From Ferroglobus placidus DSM 10642 (GTDB taxonomy: Archaea; Halobacteriota; Archaeoglobi; Archaeoglobales; Archaeoglobaceae), in assembly GCF_000025505.1 (NCBI RefSeq), contig NC_013849.1:2160001-2192000 (forward strand): a stretch of 32,000 bases of DNA. The letters are read 5' to 3'. The first letter of the stretch is position 1; each line of letters begins with the position of its first letter. A model generated the notes under the pieces. That model saw nothing but the letters and a program-made list of their open reading frames with translations. It had not been told where the DNA came from and did no database searches. The translations under genes and the position numbers were made by a program. Shown in pieces: positions 21,646 through 30,311 of this stretch.

Positions 21646-21705
21646 GCCGCTGTGATGATTACTCCCGCTGCTGACACGTGATGATTATTGCGCTATCTGA
21701 GCGGC
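21646..21705 (+). ncRNA. C/D box sRNA (2'-O-methylation guide)
   Basis: GCCGC-u-GUGAUGA(C)-UUACUCCCGCUG-CUGA(D')-cac-GUGAUGA(C')-UUAUUGCGCUAU-CUGA(D)-GCGGC. Both guides are exactly 12 nt, the D'-C' linker is 3 nt and the terminal stem is 5 bp. A TATA-like AAAAAGTTAAATGG lies about 25-30 nt upstream. Confidence 0.85.
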
Positions 21706-21887
21706 TACCATTCTATGCTTATCGCGTTGTTCGGACAGGCTCTCGTGCACGCGCCGCACTCCATGCAGAGGTCTTCGTTTACCTTAGCCACACCGCCGTC
21801 GAGATATATGGCTCCTCCCTTCTCGCTGCAAACTTCCACGCAGGCTCCGCATCCATCGCACTTTGAAGCGTCAATTACGGCAGGCAT
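21705..21887 (-). CDS. 2x[4Fe-4S] ferredoxin
   Basis: The 60-aa product has CDGCGACVEVC and CMECGACTRACP cluster motifs. Confidence 0.9.
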   Translation of the reverse strand: MPAVIDASKCDGCGACVEVCSEKGGAIYLDGGVAKVNEDLCMECGACTRACPNNAISIEW

Positions 21888-22095: not shown

Positions 22096-23289
22096 TCATG
22101 GTCTGTAGCTTTTCGGCATTCCGAGAACGTGCTCTCCTATGTAGGCGAGCGCCATCTGCTGCGTTACGGGAGCGAGCCTTATCAGGTTTATCTCTCTCCA
22201 CCACCTTTCGACATCGTATTCTTTAGTGTATCCGTAGCCTCCGAAGGTTTGCATAGCCCAGTAAACAGCTCTAATTCCTGCCTCTACTGCCACAACCTTA
22301 GCCATGTTGGCAGCGTCACCAACTTCTCTGTAAGAAGCGTTGTTGTCGAACAGCCAAGCAGCTTTCAGGTTCATCAGTTTTGCACACTCCAGCGTGGCGT
22401 AAGCCTCAGCCAAGGGGAACTGCAATCCCTGGTAGCTTCCGATCGGATCCTGAAAGACCTTCCTCTGCTTGGAATACTCCACAGCCTTGCTAACAGCCAA
22501 TCTCGCTATGCCTATTGCCGCAGCTGCGAAACTCATCCTCTCAGGATTCAGCGTGTCGAGAATTAGGTACCACCCCTCGTCTTGCGGAGGAATTAAAGCA
22601 TTTTCCGGCAATCTCAAATTATTGAAGCTGACTTCACAGGTTTTTGAATAGTTTATTCCGTGTTTTGGTATGGGGTTTATCTTTACCGCTGGATTTGGCA
22701 AGTCAGCTAAGAACAAACTTATTCCGTAAGTTCTCTTCGGAGCCTCCTCTCTTGGAGTCGTTCTTGCGATTATAAGCATTCCCTTCGCCCTGTCAGCTCC
22801 GCTTATGAATATCTTGTTGCCGTTTATCACCCACTCGTCTCCGTCTTTAACTGCCCTCGTCCTTATGTTGAGGGTGTTCGTTCCAGCGTCGGGCTCAGTC
22901 AGAGCCATGCAGAACTCAAGCTTGCCTTTAGCGATCTTCGGAAGGTACTTTTCCTTTTGCTCTTCAGTTCCGTGCCTCACAATCGTCAAAGCCCCAAAGA
23001 CCTCGGTAAGAACGAGATACCACACTCCCCCCATTCCGCAGCCGTTGGCGGCTAACTCCTCCATCGCTATAAGCAGTTCTGTCATTCCGTACCCGGAGCC
23101 CCCGTACTCTTCGGGGATTACTATTCCTACGAAACCGGCATCGCTTATAGCCTTCCAGAACTCCTCGGCAAACTCTCCCTTCTCGTCCTTTTCCCTCCAG
23201 TATTCGGGAGGAAAATCTTTAGCGATATCTCTTGCAGCCTCTGCTATCATCTTCTGATCTTCCGTCAGTTTAAAGTCCAAATCAATCAC
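22096..23289 (-). CDS. acyl-CoA dehydrogenase
   Basis: FKLTEDQKMIAEAARDIAKDF..., ALTEPDAGTN, FISGA and GGYGYTKEYDVERWWRE (catalytic Glu region). The track ORF runs to 23397, but GGAGGTG followed by the GTG at 23289 gives a normal product of about 397 aa. Confidence 0.85.
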   Translation of the reverse strand: MIDLDFKLTEDQKMIAEAARDIAKDFPPEYWREKDEKGEFAEEFWKAISDAGFVGIVIPEEYGGSGYGMTELLIAMEELAANGCGMGGVWYLVLTEVFGALTIVRHGTEEQKEKYLPKIAKGKLEFCMALTEPDAGTNTLNIRTRAVKDGDEWVINGNKIFISGADRAKGMLIIARTTPREEAPKRTYGISLFLADLPNPAVKINPIPKHGINYSKTCEVSFNNLRLPENALIPPQDEGWYLILDTLNPERMSFAAAAIGIARLAVSKAVEYSKQRKVFQDPIGSYQGLQFPLAEAYATLECAKLMNLKAAWLFDNNASYREVGDAANMAKVVAVEAGIRAVYWAMQTFGGYGYTKEYDVERWWREINLIRLAPVTQQMALAYIGEHVLGMPKSYRP

Positions 23290-23306
23290 CTCCAAAAAAT
23301 AGAAAA

Positions 23307-23777
23307 TTAGGCTGGTTTGAAGTAAAGAATGTCCGTAATCTTTCCTTCTCTCTCTTCCTTCGGCTTTAGAACCGGTTTGACTTTCATTCCAACGCAAACG
23401 TCTTCGGGATTCACTTCTCCGAGCAGGTGAATTATTCTTCCGTTTGTTCCGTCCATCTCTATGAGAGCGTAGATTTCCGGTTTTTCGAGCTTCTCTCCGT
23501 TTTTATCGTAGTACGCCACAGCAAAAGCCGCAACGCATCCCTCTCCGCTCACTTCCACGTATTCCGTCTCGCTAAAGTCGAACTCGCAGTAGATCCTCGG
23601 AGGGAAGAATACGTGCCCGCATTTTTTACATTTGGCGGCTGTAAACTTCCCCTCATCCCTCAGCTTTTTGAAAAAGTAATCTCCAGCTTCTCCGCTCGTG
23701 TAAACCCAGTAAAGCTCTATCTTACCTTCCACGTGCTTCAGCTCTCGAGGATCGATAATTTTTTCGGTAAAAACCAT
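23307..23777 (-). CDS. DUF35 (Zn-ribbon + OB-fold, acyl-CoA-associated) protein, ribbon with only three Cys
   Basis: KCKKCGHVFFPPRIYCEFDFSETEYVEVSG is followed by an OB-fold tail (IYALIEMDG...VGMKVKPVLKP). The fourth ribbon Cys is replaced (CEFD). Confidence 0.75.
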   Translation of the reverse strand: MVFTEKIIDPRELKHVEGKIELYWVYTSGEAGDYFFKKLRDEGKFTAAKCKKCGHVFFPPRIYCEFDFSETEYVEVSGEGCVAAFAVAYYDKNGEKLEKPEIYALIEMDGTNGRIIHLLGEVNPEDVCVGMKVKPVLKPKEEREGKITDILYFKPA

Positions 23778-23782
23778 TCACA

Positions 23783-24319
23783 TCACCCCTCTATCGGCTT
23801 CCAGTACTTTATATCCGTTATCGCTCCCTCCCTCTCCTCTTCGGGCTTCCAGACCGCCTTTACTTTCATTCCGATGTAAACCTTGTCCGGCTCGACCTCG
23901 CCGAGTTTATGTAGAATTCCCATGTGTGGAGAGGCTCCGTCTATAGCTATAACTGCCACAATTTCCGGCTCTTCTAAAGGTCTCGCGTCTGGATCGATGT
24001 AGGAGATCGAGAAGGTCTCAACAACTCCGGTGTCTTTAAGCTCGACCCACTCGTTTATAGGTTTGAAACAAAGCTCGCAGAATTCCCTTGGAGGAACCAT
24101 AACCCTTCCGCACTTGTTGCACTTTACTCCGAGAATCTTTCCCTCCTTCAACCCCTTGAGGAACTTGCTGATAGCCTGTCCGGCTGTAAAGGAATAGCGA
24201 ATGTCAGGGTGATCTTCCACGTACGTTATCGTCTTCTTCTCGAAATCCTCCGCTTCGAGCTCTCTCCCCTTAACGTAAGGAGGACAGCTAATATCCTTCT
24301 TACCTACCGCCAACTCCAT
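23783..24319 (-). CDS. DUF35 (Zn-ribbon + OB-fold) protein
   Basis: KCNKCGRVMVPPREFCELCFKPINEWVELKDTG has the full CxxC...CxxC ribbon, followed by an OB-fold tail. The likely start, ATG 24319, overlaps the upstream stop (TGATG). Confidence 0.75.
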   Translation of the reverse strand: MELAVGKKDISCPPYVKGRELEAEDFEKKTITYVEDHPDIRYSFTAGQAISKFLKGLKEGKILGVKCNKCGRVMVPPREFCELCFKPINEWVELKDTGVVETFSISYIDPDARPLEEPEIVAVIAIDGASPHMGILHKLGEVEPDKVYIGMKVKAVWKPEEEREGAITDIKYWKPIEG

Positions 24320-25527
24320 CACCTCTTGTTTGATAAAACCATAACGGTTCCAACCTGCATCAAATCTCCCCAAGCCTGAGCGACTCCCGTTGTGACTTCC
24401 TTCGGAACCTGCCTCTTTCCAGCTCTGTAGGCGAGCTGCCAGTAGATTTCCGCTACTTTAACTCCCATTGTCGCAGCTATCGGGTTTCCTACTCCAAGCA
24501 GTCCTCCAGATGGGCAAACAGGAAGATCACCGTCTCTTGCCGTGACTCCCTCTCTCGTTAAGATGGGTGCCTCACCCTTCTTAGCCAAGCCTAACCCTTC
24601 CATGTGGTGCAACTCCTTGTAATCGAAGGGATCGTAGGGCTCAGCCACGTCGATTTCCTTCCTCGGATCGGTTATGTGAGCCATCTTGTAAGCCATTTTC
24701 GCAGCCTCAGCCACGTACCTCGGGAAGTAGAGGTCTCTGTTCGTCCACCACGTTGTGTCCAAACTCCAGCCAACTCCTGCCACCCAAACCGGCTCGTCCG
24801 TGAGTTGTCTCGCTATGTGGGGAGCGACCATTATCAAAGCAGACGCTCCGTCGCTCGGCGGAGAAACGTCGAGTCTTCTCACCGGCAAAGCCATCGGCTC
24901 GCTGTTGAGTACGTCTTCAACGGTTATCTTGGCTGCAAGCTGTGCAGCCGGATGGTCTAAAGCGTTTGCCTTGTTCTTTACGGAAACGAGAGCTATATCT
25001 TCATGCTTTATGTTGTGGACGTGCATGTACCTCCTCATTTCCAGAGCGAATATCCAGATGAGGTTCGGTTTTAGCGGACGATCGAGAATTGGATCCCAGA
25101 TGTACTTGAAAGCCGACTGCGGATGCGGATGGGAAGAGCTCATCTTCTCTTCGGTAACAACCAAGCAAACGTCGGCAAGACCGCTTGCAACGTGCCAGTA
25201 GCCGGCGATAGGAGCGAATACTCCAGTGCCTCCTCCTACGAAAACTCTCATGTATGGCTTGTTGCTTCCTCCAGCTCCGTCGAGCAGGTATTCTCCCTTC
25301 ATGTGCACACCGTCAAAGGCATCTGGAGCTGAACCCATTACAACCATGTCTATGTCGCTGATGTCCAAGCCAGCTTCTTCCAAAGCCTGCTTTACAGCAT
25401 AGTAACTAAGCTCTTTTCCAGTCTCGTTAAGCCTCCTTCTGAATATCGTCATTCCCGCTCCAACTATCGCGACATCCTGCTTTTTGTGGTACTTCAAACC
25501 CTTAACCTTCTCAACTATCATGACCAT
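24319..25527 (-). CDS. thiolase-fold (SCP-x/Ltp-type) protein lacking the canonical catalytic Cys/His by eye
   Basis: VAIVGAGMTIF start, ...RVFVGGGTGVFAPIAGYWHVASGLADVCLVVTEEKMS (Gly where the nucleophilic Cys is expected), and CPSGGLLGVGNPIAATMG (Asn in place of the GHP His). Its ATG 25527 overlaps the upstream stop. Confidence 0.7.
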   Translation of the reverse strand: MVMIVEKVKGLKYHKKQDVAIVGAGMTIFRRRLNETGKELSYYAVKQALEEAGLDISDIDMVVMGSAPDAFDGVHMKGEYLLDGAGGSNKPYMRVFVGGGTGVFAPIAGYWHVASGLADVCLVVTEEKMSSSHPHPQSAFKYIWDPILDRPLKPNLIWIFALEMRRYMHVHNIKHEDIALVSVKNKANALDHPAAQLAAKITVEDVLNSEPMALPVRRLDVSPPSDGASALIMVAPHIARQLTDEPVWVAGVGWSLDTTWWTNRDLYFPRYVAEAAKMAYKMAHITDPRKEIDVAEPYDPFDYKELHHMEGLGLAKKGEAPILTREGVTARDGDLPVCPSGGLLGVGNPIAATMGVKVAEIYWQLAYRAGKRQVPKEVTTGVAQAWGDLMQVGTVMVLSNKR

Positions 25528-26669
25528 CACCTCGAAAATACAGCCACAGCTCCGGTAGCGGTAGGAATGTATCTCCAAGACATAGCCACGCCAACCTCAG
25601 CGTCAACCTGCCTTCTTCCAGCTTCCCCTCTCAGCTGCAAAACGACCTCCAAAGCTTTTTGCCCGCCGGTAGCTTCAAGGAGATTTCCAACGCTGAGATT
25701 TCCTCCAGAAACGTTCACCGGCAATTCTCCTTTTCTGTCGAAGTAACCGCTCTTCATCAATTCCTCCACTTCTCCCTTCTTAGCCAAACCGAGAGCTTCG
25801 ATGTGCTGAACTTCTTTGTAGGCAAACCTGTCGTCAACCTCTGCAAGCTGAATTTCTTTATCCGGCTTAGTTATTCCAGCCATCTTGTAAGCCATTTCGG
25901 CAGCCTTCTTTGCATAAGCCGCTTCAAAGCTCATCGTGTCGTAATTGCTTGTTTCGCTCCACCAGCCAATTCCGTTAATCCATATCGGATCGTCTCTAAG
26001 CTCCTTAGCAACCTGCTCGTTAGCCAAAACGAAAACAATAGCTCCGTCGCTCCTCTCAGCAATTTCGAGCTTTCTCAACGGATAGAAGGCTGCTTCGCTG
26101 CTCAAAACATCTTCGACGCTTACATTAGCTGAGTACGGAGCGTCTTTGTTCAGCCTTCCGTGCTTCTTGTTCTTTACAACAACTTCAGCGAAAAGCTCGT
26201 CGCTGTAGCCTCTTCTGCTCATGTAGTATGATTTTTCGAGGGCGGCGAAGTAGTAAGGATGAGCCTTTCCGATCGGTCTCAGCCATATCGGGTCGAACGC
26301 AAACTTAATGACTTCTCCGAAAGTCACTATGTCGCTCGCTTTGCTGTGAGCTTCTACAACAGCTATCTCAGCCAGTCCGCTCTTTATTATCATGTACGCG
26401 TTGGCGATTCCGTGGAGAAAATCGGCAGTCACGGTGAACGTTGGCTTCAGCACCGCACCAAGCTGATCTGGCACGAACTCGTCGAAAATTGCGAAGCCCT
26501 CCCAGAAGTCTTCCGCGCACGTGACGAAGCTGTCGACGTCCTTTCTTGGATTTATCCCTGCATCTTCGTAAGCTCTGACTGCAGCTTCGTACATTATCTC
26601 TTTCCAGCTTAAATCCGGCGTATTTGCGTTAAAACCGGAGTAGCCAACGCCTACGACAGCTACTCTCAT
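25527..26669 (-). CDS. thiolase-fold (SCP-x/Ltp-type) protein lacking the canonical catalytic Cys/His by eye
   Basis: MRVAVVGVGYSGF..., TFTVTADFLHGIANAYMIIKSGLAEIAVVEAHSKAS (no Cys at the nucleophile site), and NVSGGNLSVGNLLEATG (no His). Confidence 0.7.
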   Translation of the reverse strand: MRVAVVGVGYSGFNANTPDLSWKEIMYEAAVRAYEDAGINPRKDVDSFVTCAEDFWEGFAIFDEFVPDQLGAVLKPTFTVTADFLHGIANAYMIIKSGLAEIAVVEAHSKASDIVTFGEVIKFAFDPIWLRPIGKAHPYYFAALEKSYYMSRRGYSDELFAEVVVKNKKHGRLNKDAPYSANVSVEDVLSSEAAFYPLRKLEIAERSDGAIVFVLANEQVAKELRDDPIWINGIGWWSETSNYDTMSFEAAYAKKAAEMAYKMAGITKPDKEIQLAEVDDRFAYKEVQHIEALGLAKKGEVEELMKSGYFDRKGELPVNVSGGNLSVGNLLEATGGQKALEVVLQLRGEAGRRQVDAEVGVAMSWRYIPTATGAVAVFSR

Positions 26670-26812
26670 TTTGTTTCACCAGTTTCAGCTTTACTTACGC
26701 ACTATTTAAAATTTTCTTTTTTATTCATTTCAAATTTTATGAACTCCAATATAAATTTTTTTAATTATTAAACATTCCCGTAAAGCTTTTGCCTATTCGA
26801 TATCAAAAATCC

Positions 26813-26852
26813 TGACAAATTTAAGCCGGCTTCAAATAAATTTTTGACAAAG
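26813..26852. promoter_or_regulatory. candidate operator in divergent promoter region: palindrome AAGCCGGCTT flanked by TGACAAA direct repeats
   Basis: cTGACAAAtttAAGCCGGCTTcaaataaattttTGACAAAg. The 10-bp perfect palindrome lies at 26823-26832, and the TGACAAA copies start at 26813 and 26845. TATA-like elements lie on either side (TTTTAAATA on the minus-strand side near 26705; AAGCTTAAATAAAC near 26851-26864). Confidence 0.3.
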
Positions 26853-26905
26853 CTTAAATAAACTAACGCACTTCTGCTTTCTGTAAAACTTCTGGAGGGG
26901 GCAAA

Positions 26906-28465
26906 ATGTCAAGGCTTCAAGAGCATCCGATAGTTGATTTTAAGAGGGGCAAGGAAGTCACAATTTATTTCAACGGAAAGCCGATAAAAGCTTATGAGGG
27001 TGAAACTGTAGCTGCAGCGTTGTATGCTGCCGGAATTCGTGTTTTTAGCAGATCTTTCAGATTTCACAGACCTCGTGGATTCTTCTGCGCTATAGGAAAG
27101 TGTTCGGCTTGCATGATGGAAGTAGATGGAATACCAAACGTCAGAATATGCAAAGTTTACGTGAGAGACGGAATGCAGATAAGGACGCAGAACGCGTATC
27201 CTTCAGCGGAAAACGACGCTTTAGCGATTTTCGACAGGATAATAGACAGATTCTTTCCCCACGGCTCACACTACAAGAAGTTCACGAGCTCCAAAACGCT
27301 AAGGGAAATAGCGACGAAGCAAATGAGGAAAATAGCCGGAATAGGTGAGTTTCCAAAAGCTCTGCCGAAAGAAGAGGCGGACTACGAAGAGATTAATGCG
27401 GACATAGCGATAGTGGGCGGAGGTCCTGCTGGTTTATCAGCTGCAATTTACGCTGGAAGGCTCGGAGCGAAAGTTGTTCTGATGGACGAAAATCCGTACT
27501 TAGGCGGACAGCTGATAAAGCAGACACACAGATTCTTCGGTAGCGGAGAGCACTATGCCGGAACGAGAGGAATAAGGATCGCGGAAATTTTAACGAAAGA
27601 GGTAAAAGAAATTGAGAACGTGGATGTTAGGACCGAGACGAAAGTTTTCGGAATTTACGGGAAAACCGTTGCGGCTGTCGAAAAAGATAGAAAGCTCCTG
27701 AAGGTCAACGCTAAAAAGATTGTTATTGCAACCGGAGCTTATGAAAGAACCTTAATCTTTGAAAACAACGATCTTCCCGGAGTTTACGGAGCTGGAGGAG
27801 TTCAGACGTTAATGAACGTTTACGGAGTAAAGCCCGGAAATAGAGGGTTAATCGTCGGTTCTGGAAATGTAGGACTTATTCTCAGCTATCAGCTCTTGCA
27901 GGCTGGCGTTGATGTTGCAGCTATCGTCGAGGCTATGCCGTTCGTTGGAGGGTACTTCGTTCATGCTGCAAAAGTGAGGAGACTCGGAGTTCCCATTTAC
28001 ACGAGACACACGATTCTGAAGGCTCTCGGAGAAAAGAAGGTGGAAAGAGCAATAATTGTTGAGCTGGATGAAAATTGGAGACCGATCGAGGGAACGGAGA
28101 AGGAGATAGAGTGCGACTTCATCTGCGTGGCTGTAGGTTTGTCTCCAGCTCACGAATTACTTTACCAAGCCGGATGCGAAATGAAATTCGTCCCCGAGCT
28201 TGGAGGTTTGGTACCAGTTAGAAACAAGTACGGAGAAACTACTGCAGAAGGAGTTTACGTTGCCGGAGACGTGGCGGGAATCGAGGAAGCTACGGCGGCA
28301 ATGATGGAGGGTAGAATTGCCGGGCTTGATGCTGCGATAAAGCTTGGATACGGGGATGAAGAGGCGGTAAAGCTAAGAGATAAGATAGTGGGAGAACTCG
28401 AAGAGTTTAGAAGGGGACCTTTCGGTGAGAGGATTCTCAGAGGTTTGGAGAAGGTGGTGAGGTGA
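26906..28465 (+). CDS. alpha-type subunit of heteromeric proline dehydrogenase/sarcosine oxidase-like flavoenzyme (2Fe-2S domain + FAD/NAD(P) oxidoreductase)
   Basis: N-terminal Fer2_4-like region: IYFNGKPIKAYEGETVAAAL...RPRGFFCAIGKCSACMMEVDGIPNVRIC. Then DIAIVGGGPAGLSAAIYA, LIVGSGNVGL and GVYVAGDVAG. A GGAGGGGG RBS lies before the ATG. Confidence 0.7.
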   Translation: MSRLQEHPIVDFKRGKEVTIYFNGKPIKAYEGETVAAALYAAGIRVFSRSFRFHRPRGFFCAIGKCSACMMEVDGIPNVRICKVYVRDGMQIRTQNAYPSAENDALAIFDRIIDRFFPHGSHYKKFTSSKTLREIATKQMRKIAGIGEFPKALPKEEADYEEINADIAIVGGGPAGLSAAIYAGRLGAKVVLMDENPYLGGQLIKQTHRFFGSGEHYAGTRGIRIAEILTKEVKEIENVDVRTETKVFGIYGKTVAAVEKDRKLLKVNAKKIVIATGAYERTLIFENNDLPGVYGAGGVQTLMNVYGVKPGNRGLIVGSGNVGLILSYQLLQAGVDVAAIVEAMPFVGGYFVHAAKVRRLGVPIYTRHTILKALGEKKVERAIIVELDENWRPIEGTEKEIECDFICVAVGLSPAHELLYQAGCEMKFVPELGGLVPVRNKYGETTAEGVYVAGDVAGIEEATAAMMEGRIAGLDAAIKLGYGDEEAVKLRDKIVGELEEFRRGPFGERILRGLEKVVR

Positions 28466-28954
28466 ATGCAGGAGTTTTGCAAGAGGGGGTATTTGATTGA
28501 AGAAGAACTTCCAGAACCGCCAAGCGAAGAAAGGCTGAGAGATAAAAGACCCGTGGCTTACATAGAATGCCCTCAGAGAATTCCCTGCTCACCTTGTAAA
28601 GAAGCTTGCAGGTTCGATGCTGTGATAATGGAGACGATAAACGACACTCCGAAAGTGGATTACGAGAAGTGTACCGGATGCATGGCTTGCATAAGAGTTT
28701 GCCCCGGCTTAGCAATTTTCATGCTCCAAATTAAGGACGATAAGGGTTACGTTACCTTGCAGTACGAATTCCTGCCCTGGCTGAAAAAGGGAGACAGAGT
28801 GCTCGTTTTGAACAGAAAAGGGGAAGTGATAGGAGAGGGAGTAATAGCGTGGGCTTTGAATCCGGAAAGGAACGACAGAACTCAGCTCGTAACGGTTGAA
28901 GTCGATAAAGATCTGATTTTTGAGGCGAGAGCGGTTAAGAAGGTGGTAGAATGA
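28466..28954 (+). CDS. gamma-type ferredoxin-like 4Fe-4S subunit
   Basis: CPQRIPCSPCKEACRFDAV and CTGCMACIRVCPGLAI cluster motifs. It starts directly after the upstream stop. Confidence 0.6.
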   Translation: MQEFCKRGYLIEEELPEPPSEERLRDKRPVAYIECPQRIPCSPCKEACRFDAVIMETINDTPKVDYEKCTGCMACIRVCPGLAIFMLQIKDDKGYVTLQYEFLPWLKKGDRVLVLNRKGEVIGEGVIAWALNPERNDRTQLVTVEVDKDLIFEARAVKKVVE

Positions 28955-29223
28955 AGAGCAGAAAGATCGTTTGCAGGTGTGAGGATATAACCGAAGAGGA
29001 AATAATACACGCTATAGAGGAAGGATACGACGACATAGAAAGTTTGAAAAGGTACACGGGAGCCACAACCGGAGCTTGCCAGGGAAAGGGTTGCCTAATG
29101 CACATACTGAGGATTCTCAGTCAAAAAACCGGAAAGAGTCCAGAGGAGATCGGGATAACAACCCAAAGACCTCCCGTAAACCCAGTTCCCTTATACGTTT
29201 TGGCTGAGGGTGATAAAGAATGA
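28951..29223 (+). CDS. delta-type small BFD-like [2Fe-2S]-binding subunit
   Basis: CRCEDITEEEI...TGATTGACQGKGC is the BFD-like 2Fe-2S pattern. There are 4-nt overlaps with both neighbouring genes. Confidence 0.6.
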   Translation: MKSRKIVCRCEDITEEEIIHAIEEGYDDIESLKRYTGATTGACQGKGCLMHILRILSQKTGKSPEEIGITTQRPPVNPVPLYVLAEGDKE

Positions 29224-30311
29224 GGGTGGCGATAATCGGTTCCGGCATAGCCGGGATTTCTCTCGCTTACTTTCTTGCGAAAAGCGGAATTGACGTGGCT
29301 GTTTTCGAGAAAAAATATCCTCTTTACGGAGCGAGCGGAAGAAATTCGGGGGGAATAACTCTTCAGTTCGACAAACCGGAGTTCGTGGATCTCGCTAAGG
29401 AGAGCTTAAAAATTTACGACAGAGTTCAGTCGGAAGTGGGATTCAACTTCCTGTACAGGCACGACGGCTACATAAAAGTGGCGAGAAATAAAGACGATTT
29501 GGACAAGCTTGAAAAAGAGGTTAAAGTGGCGAAGTCGAGAGGAGTAAAAGCGAAAATGCTTGAAGCCGAGGAAGTAAAGGAGTTCGTTCCCGACTTCAAC
29601 CCTGATGCCATAGTTGGGGCGAGCTATTCGGAAGGGGGAGTGATCTTTCCTTGGCCGGTAATCTGGGGATTTGCCAAAGGTTGTAAAGAGATGGGAGTTG
29701 AGATCAAAAAAATGAGCGAAGTTAAGGAGATCGTCATTGAAAAAGGGTTTGTAAAGGGAGTAAAAGCTAACGGAGAGATCTACAAGGCTGATTACGTCGT
29801 CAACGCAGCGGGAGCTTGGAGCAACGAAGTCTCGTCTTTAGCTGGCGTAGGATTGGATAACAGAATAATTAAAGAGGAAATTTGCGTTAGCGAAAGCTTA
29901 AAACCTTACCTCGATCTCTACATTCTCGACGTCTCCACCGGCGTTTACCTGAGTCAGAGTGTCAGAGGAGAGATAGTGGGAGGGATTCTCGGCAGCGAGG
30001 TAGAAAAGCCGGACACTTCTTCAAGCTTCGAGTTCTTGACGAAGTACGCTAAAAAAGCGAGCGAGCTAATTCCGAAGCTTAAGAGCCTAACGATACTCAG
30101 GCAGTGGGCGGGAGTTTACGATGTCGCCAAGGACGATATGCCCGTAGTTGGATTAACCTCCGTCAGCGGCTTCATACAGTTCAACGGGCTCGGAAAATTC
30201 GGAATGTGCATCGCTCCAGCTCTGGCAAAGGAGTTGGCAATTTTGATTGTAAGGGGAGAAAACAGAAAAATAGAAAAGTTCAGTCCCCTCAGATTGAAAA
30301 TTTACCACTAA
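29220..30311 (+). CDS. beta-type FAD-dependent (DAO-family) amino-acid dehydrogenase/oxidase subunit
   Basis: MRVAIIGSGIAGISLAYFLAKSG.DVAVFEK dinucleotide fold, GASGRNSGG, and NAAGAWS. Confidence 0.7.
   Translation: MRVAIIGSGIAGISLAYFLAKSGIDVAVFEKKYPLYGASGRNSGGITLQFDKPEFVDLAKESLKIYDRVQSEVGFNFLYRHDGYIKVARNKDDLDKLEKEVKVAKSRGVKAKMLEAEEVKEFVPDFNPDAIVGASYSEGGVIFPWPVIWGFAKGCKEMGVEIKKMSEVKEIVIEKGFVKGVKANGEIYKADYVVNAAGAWSNEVSSLAGVGLDNRIIKEEICVSESLKPYLDLYILDVSTGVYLSQSVRGEIVGGILGSEVEKPDTSSSFEFLTKYAKKASELIPKLKSLTILRQWAGVYDVAKDDMPVVGLTSVSGFIQFNGLGKFGMCIAPALAKELAILIVRGENRKIEKFSPLRLKIYH

Follow-up and report, generated by a model that had tools for sequence, protein, structure and literature searches.

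The described systems that come nearest to the gene cluster reported here are the Ltp2-ChsH2 (6ok1) and Sal-Shy (9myr) complexes, the actinobacterial Ltp3-Ltp4 pair and the archaeal thiolases that work with a DUF35 partner. In Ltp2, Sal and TbSLP the catalytic base is a Tyr, the first residue of YDHF, YDCY and YDCF, respectively; this motif is the counterpart of the H-D-C-F of SCP2 thiolases, and the nucleophile position of Sal is occupied by Gly (PMC12329534). Ltp3-Ltp4 is described, in the passages of PMC6678751 and PMC10398937 that draw on Wilbrink et al. 2012, as a heteromeric aldol-lyase acting on C24-branched sterol side chains. We have analyzed a cluster of five genes in a 32,000-nt stretch of Ferroglobus placidus DSM 10642 (NC_013849.1, positions 2,160,001 to 2,192,000; hereafter the window), encoding two thiolase-fold proteins, ThlA and ThlB, two DUF35 proteins, DufA and DufB, and an acyl-CoA dehydrogenase (ACAD). 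Judging from the sequences, the four-gene cassette ThlA-ThlB-DufA-DufB most likely belongs among the DUF35-bound, Cys-less thiolase-fold C-C lyases with the heteromeric architecture of Ltp3/Ltp4.

The first-pass annotation of the window had read both thiolase-fold proteins as lacking the nucleophilic Cys, with Asn in place of the GHP His. We fixed the residue positions from HMMER alignments to the solved thiolases 7yvy, 4yzo, 6esq, 4bi9 and 6hsj, a procedure that could have placed a conserved Cys and His at the catalytic positions, and found none there in either protein. In ThlA, the residue opposite the Cys is Phe84 ('TADFLHG'), in a loop that is three residues shorter and directly after a nearly invariant Asp83; orthologues have F, G or V at position 84. 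In ThlB, it is Gly97 ('VGGGTGV', within G-G-G-T-G), which is invariant. The H-D-C-F site has become D-D-R-F in ThlA and Y-D-P-F, with Tyr296 as the first residue, in ThlB, and the G-H-P site reads G-N-L (Asn329) in the former and G-N-P (G345-N346-P) in the latter. Among 32 ThlB orthologues from archaea and bacteria the mean column identity is 75%; G96-G98, T99, Y296, D297, P298, F299 and N346 are invariant, and the motifs GGGTG, EPYDPF, GVGNP and AWGD vary little or not at all. The corresponding figure for ThlA is 65%, with D83, D280 and G328 invariant or nearly so, Asn, His or Tyr at position 329, and Asp, Asn or Cys at the first position of x-D-x-F, where ThlB has its Tyr. The fact that the active-site changes are conserved across 60-80 orthologues means that they are not due to chance. 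Since formation of an acyl-enzyme is impossible, neither protein is a thiolase, and with all three catalytic positions replaced, and the replacements conserved, the earlier view that this is not a beta-oxidation thiolase holds.

The fold itself has been retained. AlphaFold2 models of ThlA (pLDDT 87, pTM 0.91) and ThlB (pLDDT 79, pTM 0.86) show the SCP2-type thiolase fold, and Foldseek matches both to 7yvy, 6esq and 6hsp with TM scores of 0.8-0.9. The two proteins, which are 38% identical to each other, score above the NCBIfam cut-offs of PRK06066 (ThlA, 620.6 bits, cut-off 516) and PRK06065 (ThlB, 754.5 bits, cut-off 455), families titled 'thiolase domain-containing protein' to which no function is assigned; Pfam places Thiolase_C_1 in both and Thiolase_N in ThlB. 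It could be argued that the pair is a thiolase or a Claisen condensing enzyme after all, with an unconventional nucleophile such as ThlB Cys336, as databases name the proteins acetyl-CoA C-acetyltransferase and most orthologues carry this Cys within P-V-C-P-S-G-G. However, Cys336 is Asn or Ser in many orthologues (e.g., at loci L025, L037, L050 and L087), and the oxyanion-hole His and acid/base Cys are all gone. Moreover, the genome keeps four thiolase/DUF35 pairs with Cys, HDCF and GHP all in place, so canonical thiolysis is covered elsewhere. Given the variability of Cys336 and the missing oxyanion residues, we set this explanation aside as highly improbable.

With respect to Ltp2 and Sal, ThlB shares the SCP2-thiolase fold without its Cys, a DUF35 partner (in ThlB a predicted one) and the Tyr of x-D-x-F, and it resembles Sal further in having Gly at the nucleophile position. 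Tyr296, invariant in the 32 sequences, aligns with the His of HDCF in the SCP2 thiolases 4bi9 and 6hsj, and hence stands at the site of the Ltp2/Sal base, given that PMC12329534 equates the two motifs. Ltp2 and Sal are homodimers whose DUF35 domain is borne on a hydratase, whereas the cassette is predicted to form a heterodimer and has two free DUF35 proteins; their identity to ThlB is 24%, and they appear at Foldseek ranks 22 and 28, behind true thiolases. Both ThlA and ThlB are nearer, by sequence and by fold, to the archaeal DUF35-type thiolases, of which Pyrococcus furiosus PFC_04095 (7yvy) and the Methanothermococcus thermolithotrophicus thiolase (6esq) are the nearest solved relatives (E 1e-47 to 1e-22, TM ~0.9). 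These are encoded beside a DUF35 gene, like five other Ferroglobus thiolase-fold proteins, but they keep Cys, HDCF and GHP, carry out thiolysis or condensation and consist of a single thiolase type. The HMG-CoA (3-hydroxy-3-methylglutaryl-CoA) synthase partner seen in 6esq has no counterpart here, as neither the cluster nor its flanks contain an HMGCS-like gene. In PhlABC/MucABC, two different thiolase-superfamily subunits are joined by a DUF35 protein, as predicted for the cassette; unlike in the cassette, PhlC keeps its catalytic Cys, PhlA is KAS III-like rather than an SCP2-type paralogue, and DUF35 is of a single type.

The nearest analogue, not named in the first-pass annotation, is the Ltp3/Ltp4 type with its adjacent double DUF35. 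Through the NCBIfam family PRK07937 ('lipid-transfer protein') we fetched four actinobacterial loci (L100-L103), which we take to be ltp4/ltp3 loci from the family name and the mycobacterial gene order; none of our conclusions draws on G179, an unpublished genome also listed. Each encodes three consecutive proteins: a double DUF35 fusion (340-370 aa), an alpha subunit (355 aa; VEMDAAW, Y-A-P-F, A-N-P) and a beta subunit (390 aa; TAGSVGG, Y-V-P-F, S-N-P), adjoining an F420-dependent oxidoreductase and a P450. As in the cassette, there are two Cys-less thiolase-fold subunits and two DUF35 domains per cluster; the Ltp3-like beta subunit and ThlB share GG/S-x-G, Y-x-P-F and N-P, and the Ltp4-like alpha subunit and ThlA share the shortened loop with its Asp. 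On the other hand, the order there is Duf-Duf-alpha-beta with fused DUF35s, against alpha-beta-Duf-Duf here; the Ltp4-like alpha subunit has a Tyr (Y-A-P-F) where ThlA has D-D-R-F; and the sterol context is absent at the cassette. ThlA and ThlB are ~25-33% identical to their counterparts in these loci and fall far below the respective family cut-offs (ThlB against PRK08313, 253.5 bits, cut-off 514; ThlA against PRK07937, 87.3 bits, cut-off 419), i.e. they form separate families.

In order to place the two subunits in the superfamily, a profile search was run against 1.84 billion representatives (50%-identity clusters), and of the best 150 matches, the 114 that were full-length were sorted by the three motif positions. 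These 114 comprised 7 members of the ThlB family, 19 other beta types (small residues at the Cys site, Y-x-[PA]-F, N-P), 37 alpha types (shortened loop with Asp), 12 Cys-less proteins with both His kept, 27 canonical thiolases and 12 others. In a FastTree phylogeny of 124 sequences (Shimodaira-Hasegawa-like support, midpoint root, sampling biased towards ThlB), all 41 alpha-type rows, including ThlA, the Ltp4-like subunits and a second Asgard alpha subunit, fall on one side of a single split with support 98. The ThlB family (99), the other beta types including the Ltp3-like subunits (97) and the canonical thiolases (98) meet in an unresolved three-way fork. From these splits, the alpha/beta arrangement is old and diversified, and the present cassette, which is separate from Ltp3/Ltp4, is the best conserved of its branches. 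Four loci of the Hodarchaeota/Promethearchaeota (L024:10579-13862, L027, L031 and L033) carry a second, paralogous 2+2 cassette beside the first, with a beta subunit of motifs TTGGTTGG, Y-S-P-F and T-N-A and an alpha subunit with V-E-M-D-G-A, nearer to the Ltp3/Ltp4 type.

The cassette itself is widespread. One genome per species was scanned, which gave 80 loci, and the window's proteins were mapped onto them by tblastn. About 60 of the 80 loci fetched have the genes in the fixed order ThlA-ThlB-DufA-DufB, and these are nearly all of the loci that extend far enough to reveal it. The archaeal hosts are Archaeoglobi, Asgard archaea, Bathyarchaeia, Baldrarchaeum, Thermoplasmata and Nitrosocaldus, and the bacterial ones Thermodesulfobacteriota/Syntrophaceae, Syntrophorhabdus, Chloroflexi, Actinomycetota, Krumholzibacteriia, Latescibacteria and WOR-3. 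Identity of ThlB to the window protein is ~90% within Archaeoglobi and 61-75% outside; that of ThlA orthologues is 46-58%. Within the class Archaeoglobi the ThlB family occurs in 36 of 96 genomes and 11 of 21 genera, and those genomes with only one to four thiolase candidates are mostly without it; among 14 control genomes it was found only in Sulfolobus acidocaldarius. The comparison of phylogeny and gene neighborhoods that the first-pass annotation had called for thus puts ThlA in the alpha split and finds the cassette order conserved within and beyond Archaeoglobi. Our search of the full-text literature found no paper describing an activity of this cassette, and the subject of the archaeal fatty-acid-synthase preprint is a canonical thiolase/DUF35 pair.

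Several features suggest that the four proteins form one complex. DufA and DufB, 46% identical, each have a zf-ChsH2 and an OB_ChsH2_C domain. As noted before, the zinc ribbon of DufA is a complete C-x2-C...C-x2-C, each Cys of which is kept in 45-46 of 46 orthologues, and that of DufB has three Cys (CKKC...CEFD); the Asp turns out to be a minority variant that the window happens to carry, the fourth ligand being Cys in 33 of 46 orthologues and Asp in 13. The Ferroglobus genome has seven thiolase-fold and seven DUF35 genes, always adjacent, and each of the five thiolase-fold genes outside the cassette is followed by one DUF35 gene. Four of these five pairs are the canonical ones mentioned above. 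The fifth (L004:1495-2649; G000:C1:852444-853598, plus strand) encodes a Cys-less protein with Asp at the nucleophile position ('VEAADASGG'), H-D-S-F and both His kept, a third kind of degenerate thiolase in Ferroglobus.

Natural fusions point in the same direction. Of 51 DufA relatives longer than DufA, 26 are ThlB-DufA fusions (~590 aa), 7 are single-chain ThlB-DufA-DufB fusions (P0053, 731 aa; P0203; P0205-P0209) and 18 are double DUF35 proteins, so that DufA is joined to ThlB in 33; none of the 51 has DufA fused to a hydratase, ACAD, mutase or any other enzyme. The fusions, the rule of one DUF35 per thiolase and the alpha-beta-beta-alpha layout of the solved thiolase/DUF35 complexes favor a heterodimer flanked by two DUF35 proteins, and the best reading of these sequences is a 1:1:1:1 heteromer in which ThlA-ThlB would be flanked by DufA and DufB. 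The heteromer of alpha, beta and two DUF35 subunits proposed earlier thus finds support in the fixed gene order, the gene ratio and the fusions. That the assembly is a non-thiolytic enzyme appears quite probable to us. One alternative is a pair of pseudoenzymes in a non-catalytic complex that binds or carries acyl-CoA or docks other beta-oxidation enzymes, in line with the loss of every thiolase catalytic residue from both subunits and with the scaffolding role of DUF35 in known complexes, e.g. those of the archaeal fatty-acid synthase and HMG-CoA synthase. However, conservation peaks at precisely the remodelled active-site motifs (GGGTG, EPYDPF, GVGNP and AWGD), and the fusions join only the cassette's own parts. 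Furthermore, a ThlB that is 61-75% identical across phyla and domains of life, with a column mean of 75%, is too constrained for a dead protein, and we consider a scaffold very unlikely.

The DUF35 proteins also have a solved relative. SSO2064 of Saccharolobus solfataricus (3irb) is by far the best structural match of the two, with 76 bits for DufA and 61 bits for DufB; the runners-up among DUF35 structures score ~30. It was the first DUF35 structure, solved alone, and its authors proposed only an acyl-CoA-binding role; by sequence, SSO2064 is probably a component of an orthologous cassette.

As to the reaction, we favor a retro-aldolase acting after an ACAD and a hydratase on a small 3-hydroxyacyl-CoA, with a rough probability of 0.5. 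The four proteins would make up one heteromeric enzyme, each thiolase-fold subunit having its DUF35 as in Ltp2, Sal, BbsAB and the archaeal complexes. ThlB, with its aldolase-type base, looks like the catalytic subunit and ThlA like its partner, judging by their motifs. Tyr296 would take the proton from the 3-hydroxyl, the C2-C3 bond would break to give an aldehyde or ketone and the enolate of acetyl- or propionyl-CoA, and the enolate would then be protonated. In Ferroglobus, the 2-enoyl-CoA would be formed by the presumably co-transcribed ACAD and the 3-hydroxyacyl-CoA by a hydratase from another locus, a dehydrogenate-hydrate-cleave route in which no 3-hydroxyacyl-CoA dehydrogenase would be needed. 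A tertiary 3-hydroxyl, such as that handled by Ltp2 and in the proposed Ltp3/Ltp4 step, calls for a retro-aldolase. The substrate would be a small, common acyl-CoA; our guess is a methyl-branched one from the breakdown of amino acids or isoprenoids, possibly releasing propionyl-CoA. An acyl-CoA that has been dehydrogenated and hydrated, often with genes for the disposal of propionyl-CoA nearby, would be consistent with a retro-aldolase whose product is propionyl-CoA, as in the case of Ltp2, or acetyl-CoA.

Several points weigh against this reading. ThlB has Pro298 where the essential Cys304 of Sal and His296 of Ltp2 stand, so that the second catalytic residue of Sal is missing, and the residue matching Tyr344 of Ltp2 could not be aligned. 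The good conservation of ThlA and its nearly invariant Asp83 mean that a catalytic beta with an inert alpha subunit may be the wrong picture. The Ltp3/Ltp4 role, as given in the passages cited above, rests on genetic evidence only. Among the neighboring genes, described below, the three types of linked ACAD differ, so one common substrate is not evident; no hydratase adjoins the cassette in Ferroglobus, and most bacterial loci have neither an adjoining hydratase nor an ACAD; and the mutase neighborhood would suit a decarboxylase equally well. A different proposal is an acyl-CoA reaction in the former thiolase pocket that leaves C-C bonds untouched, such as hydrolysis of the thioester, isomerisation or epimerisation, or addition of water. 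In its favor, fold and DUF35 partners indicate no more than binding of acyl-CoA, an aldolase mechanism has no candidate for its catalytic acid, and ThlA has its Asp at the old nucleophile site. Yet the characterised Cys-less, DUF35-bound relatives with the Tyr motif, Ltp2 and Sal, are all retro-aldolases, and two subunits with two helpers would be elaborate for a hydrolase or isomerase; we judge such a reaction unlikely.

Neighboring genes were clustered for loci of 9 kb or more. An ACAD lies near the cassette in 8 of 11 Archaeoglobi, 12 of 12 Asgard (a divergent ACAD-like gene) and 14 of 17 Thermodesulfobacteriota loci, but in 0 of 14 loci from other bacteria. The ACAD linkage noted in the first pass is therefore real in those three groups, but the conserved unit is four genes, ACAD excluded. 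In Archaeoglobi, the ACAD that follows the cassette is 75-99% identical to that of the window. Comparison of motifs across 41 linked ACADs separates three types. The window's ACAD, of the Archaeoglobi/Hadarchaeota type, has the Glu of 'NPER' at the base position of isovaleryl-CoA dehydrogenase (IVD) and long-chain acyl-CoA dehydrogenase, and its C-terminal position corresponding to the base of medium-chain acyl-CoA dehydrogenase (MCAD) is without Glu ('RLAPVT'). The Asgard type has 'EER' and 'HGGGS' with an IVD-type base, and the Thermodesulfobacteriota type has the MCAD-type 'GEGT'. No linked ACAD scores above any NCBIfam equivalog cut-off, and thus no substrate can be read from the ACAD families; the IVD-type enzyme in archaea gives a hint, in which we place little confidence, of a 3-methyl-branched substrate. 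In four Archaeoglobaceae loci (L014, L015, L020 and L022), a translationally coupled gene for an enoyl-CoA hydratase follows the ACAD; Ferroglobus has no close orthologue of it. L014, L020 and L022 have genes of a branched-chain-amino-acid-type ABC transporter after the hydratase; in L017, such genes follow the ACAD gene immediately. Divergent upstream genes in L014, L015 and L017 encode a methylmalonyl-CoA mutase (MCM), an mmdA-type carboxyltransferase, an AbfD/HpaB-like protein and a crotonase.

The association with MCM is strongest in Thermodesulfobacteriota, where the large and small subunits of MCM, MeaB and CobO flank the cassette in 14 of 17 loci. The linked mutase scores as the methylmalonyl-CoA type and not as IcmF. 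The typical operon (L041:1-12200, representative of 11-14 loci) consists of genes for two HdrA/GltD-like iron-sulphur flavoproteins, CobO, the MCM large and B12-binding small subunits, the cassette, an MCAD-type ACAD, MeaB and an mmdA-type carboxyltransferase. Electron confurcation by the flavoproteins may serve to re-oxidise the ACAD. The presence of MCM, MeaB and carboxyltransferase beside the cassette fits a release of propionyl-CoA. It has also led us to weigh a biotin-independent (methyl)malonyl-CoA decarboxylase, in which the thioester would be polarised and CO2 released as in KS-Q/CLF-type domains, and which together with the B12-dependent mutase would convert succinyl-CoA into propionyl-CoA. 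Besides the linkage in Thermodesulfobacteriota and in the three Archaeoglobaceae loci, the weak decarboxylation of malonyl-CoA by the Cys-less TbSLP (YDCF) speaks for it, but Sal did not show this activity (PMC12329534). In addition, the same operons already carry an mmdA/PCC-type carboxyltransferase (PCC, propionyl-CoA carboxylase), both His used by decarboxylating thiolase-fold enzymes are replaced, by Tyr and Asn, and most cassette loci, the window included, have no mutase nearby, all of which makes a decarboxylase quite unlikely. We had also considered the cassette, mutase and ACAD as the enzymes of Smithella propionate dismutation; this was dropped, as the cassette is far more widespread than its link to the mutase. 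Ferroglobus has three MCM-type large-subunit genes, L089, L090 and L091 (C1:1590859, 1361255 and 2004063; 941, 804 and 656 bits against TIGR00641), which lie 180-820 kb from the cassette, the first adjoining an mmdA-type carboxyltransferase gene.

Elsewhere the neighborhoods are more varied. An acyl-CoA synthetase gene is found near the cassette in 3 Asgard loci, an indolepyruvate-oxidoreductase-like gene and ACAD genes lie upstream in Nitrosocaldus, and a CoA transferase gene is nearby in one Chloroflexi locus. No recurrent neighbor was identified in the 14 loci from other bacteria. In Krumholzibacteriia (L070:13605-14612; also L072, L078 and L079), a gene for an aldo/keto reductase fused to a 4Fe-4S domain lies ~3 kb downstream of the cassette; this reductase could consume a carbonyl product, or its presence could be a coincidence.

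The features of the Ferroglobus locus are collected in Table 1.

Table 1. The cassette, the linked ACAD gene and the flanking features (positions are those of the window).
Feature	Position	Strand	Description
ThlA	26669..25527	minus	380 aa; alpha-type Cys-less thiolase-fold subunit
ThlB	25521..24319	minus	400 aa; beta-type Cys-less thiolase-fold subunit
DufA	24319..23783	minus	178 aa; DUF35, Cys4 zinc ribbon and OB fold
DufB	23777..23307	minus	156 aa; second DUF35, zinc site C-x2-C...C-x2-D
ACAD (acyl-CoA dehydrogenase)	23280..22096	minus	394 aa
Divergent intergenic region 5' of ThlA	26670..26905		presumed operon promoter, from position only
Ferredoxin gene	21705-21887	minus	60 aa, 2x[4Fe-4S]
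Four-subunit flavoenzyme operon, divergent from ThlA	26906-30311	plus

The first-pass picture of five tightly packed, co-directional genes agrees with the open reading frame (ORF) calls and with the public protein collection, in which all five products are present with the same starts and lengths as in Table 1, under the names 'thiolase domain-containing protein', 'Zn-ribbon domain-containing OB-fold protein' and 'acyl-CoA dehydrogenase family protein'; the ACAD has three ACAD domains in Pfam. The junctions reported earlier, TGATG at 25527 and 24319 and gaps of 5 and 17 nt, can be read directly, but two of them depend on the start codon taken. The TGA of ThlA overlaps an in-frame ATG at 25527; the database start of ThlB is the second ATG, at 25521, which lies 5 nt past the ThlA stop and has the better spacing to GAGGTGA. 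The ThlB stop and DufA start form the TGATG at 24319, DufA and DufB are 5 nt apart, and the gap from DufB to the ACAD gene is 17 nt if translation starts at GTG 23289 and 26 nt from the database start, TTG 23280. A search for public RNA runs containing the locus listed none, which has no bearing on its expression. A survey of the cluster by ORFs and Pfam agrees with the earlier statement that it encodes no hydratase.

On the downstream side, the ferredoxin gene begins 208 nt past the ACAD gene on the same strand and is not counted in the unit; in related loci its product matches only the ferredoxin domains within the HdrA-like proteins of the Thermodesulfobacteriota operons. The divergent flavoenzyme operon encodes a 2Fe-2S/FAD subunit (519 aa), a 4Fe-4S subunit (162 aa), a SoxA-A3/BFD subunit (90 aa) and a DAO subunit (363 aa). 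It was rejected as a functional partner, its synteny with the cassette being found only in the nearest relative, L009.

Extending the retro-aldolase reading, one can envision a widespread and hitherto undescribed 'aldolytic' form of beta-oxidation, made up of ACAD, hydratase and retro-aldolase, for which anaerobic archaea and bacteria of sediments would use the cassette as key enzyme, although we regard this extension as doubtful. Such a pathway would take methyl-branched acyl-CoAs from leucine, isoleucine and isoprenoid lipids, for example by way of 3-hydroxyisovaleryl-CoA or 2-methyl-3-hydroxyacyl-CoAs, and would release acetyl- or propionyl-CoA and a ketone or aldehyde. Ordinary beta-oxidation would be unable to oxidise some of these branched acyl-CoAs, or could do so only through an extra NAD-dependent step, and the numerous alpha/beta paralogues of the cassette would represent one machine adapted to different substrates.

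The new elements here are the invariant Y-D-P-F of ThlB, the fixed four-gene cassette, the natural fusions, the grouping of ThlA with Ltp4-like subunits and the motif signature common to ThlB and Ltp3-like subunits. The single-chain fusions would be handy constructs for expression and structural work. The cassette belongs to a large alpha/beta radiation of Cys-less proteins (26 beta-type and 37 alpha-type among the best 114 full-length clusters), in which only Ltp3/Ltp4 has genetic data. With the genes labelled acetyl-CoA acetyltransferase or 'thiolase domain-containing protein', an impossible thiolase is counted whenever the metabolism of Archaeoglobi, Asgard archaea, Bathyarchaeia, syntrophic Thermodesulfobacteriota and others is reconstructed. 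Few acyl-CoA enzymes common to these organisms are conserved as strongly as this family, and no reaction has been assigned to it; once defined, that reaction would fill a gap in anaerobic short-chain and branched acyl-CoA metabolism and would add a thermostable C-C lyase to biocatalysis.

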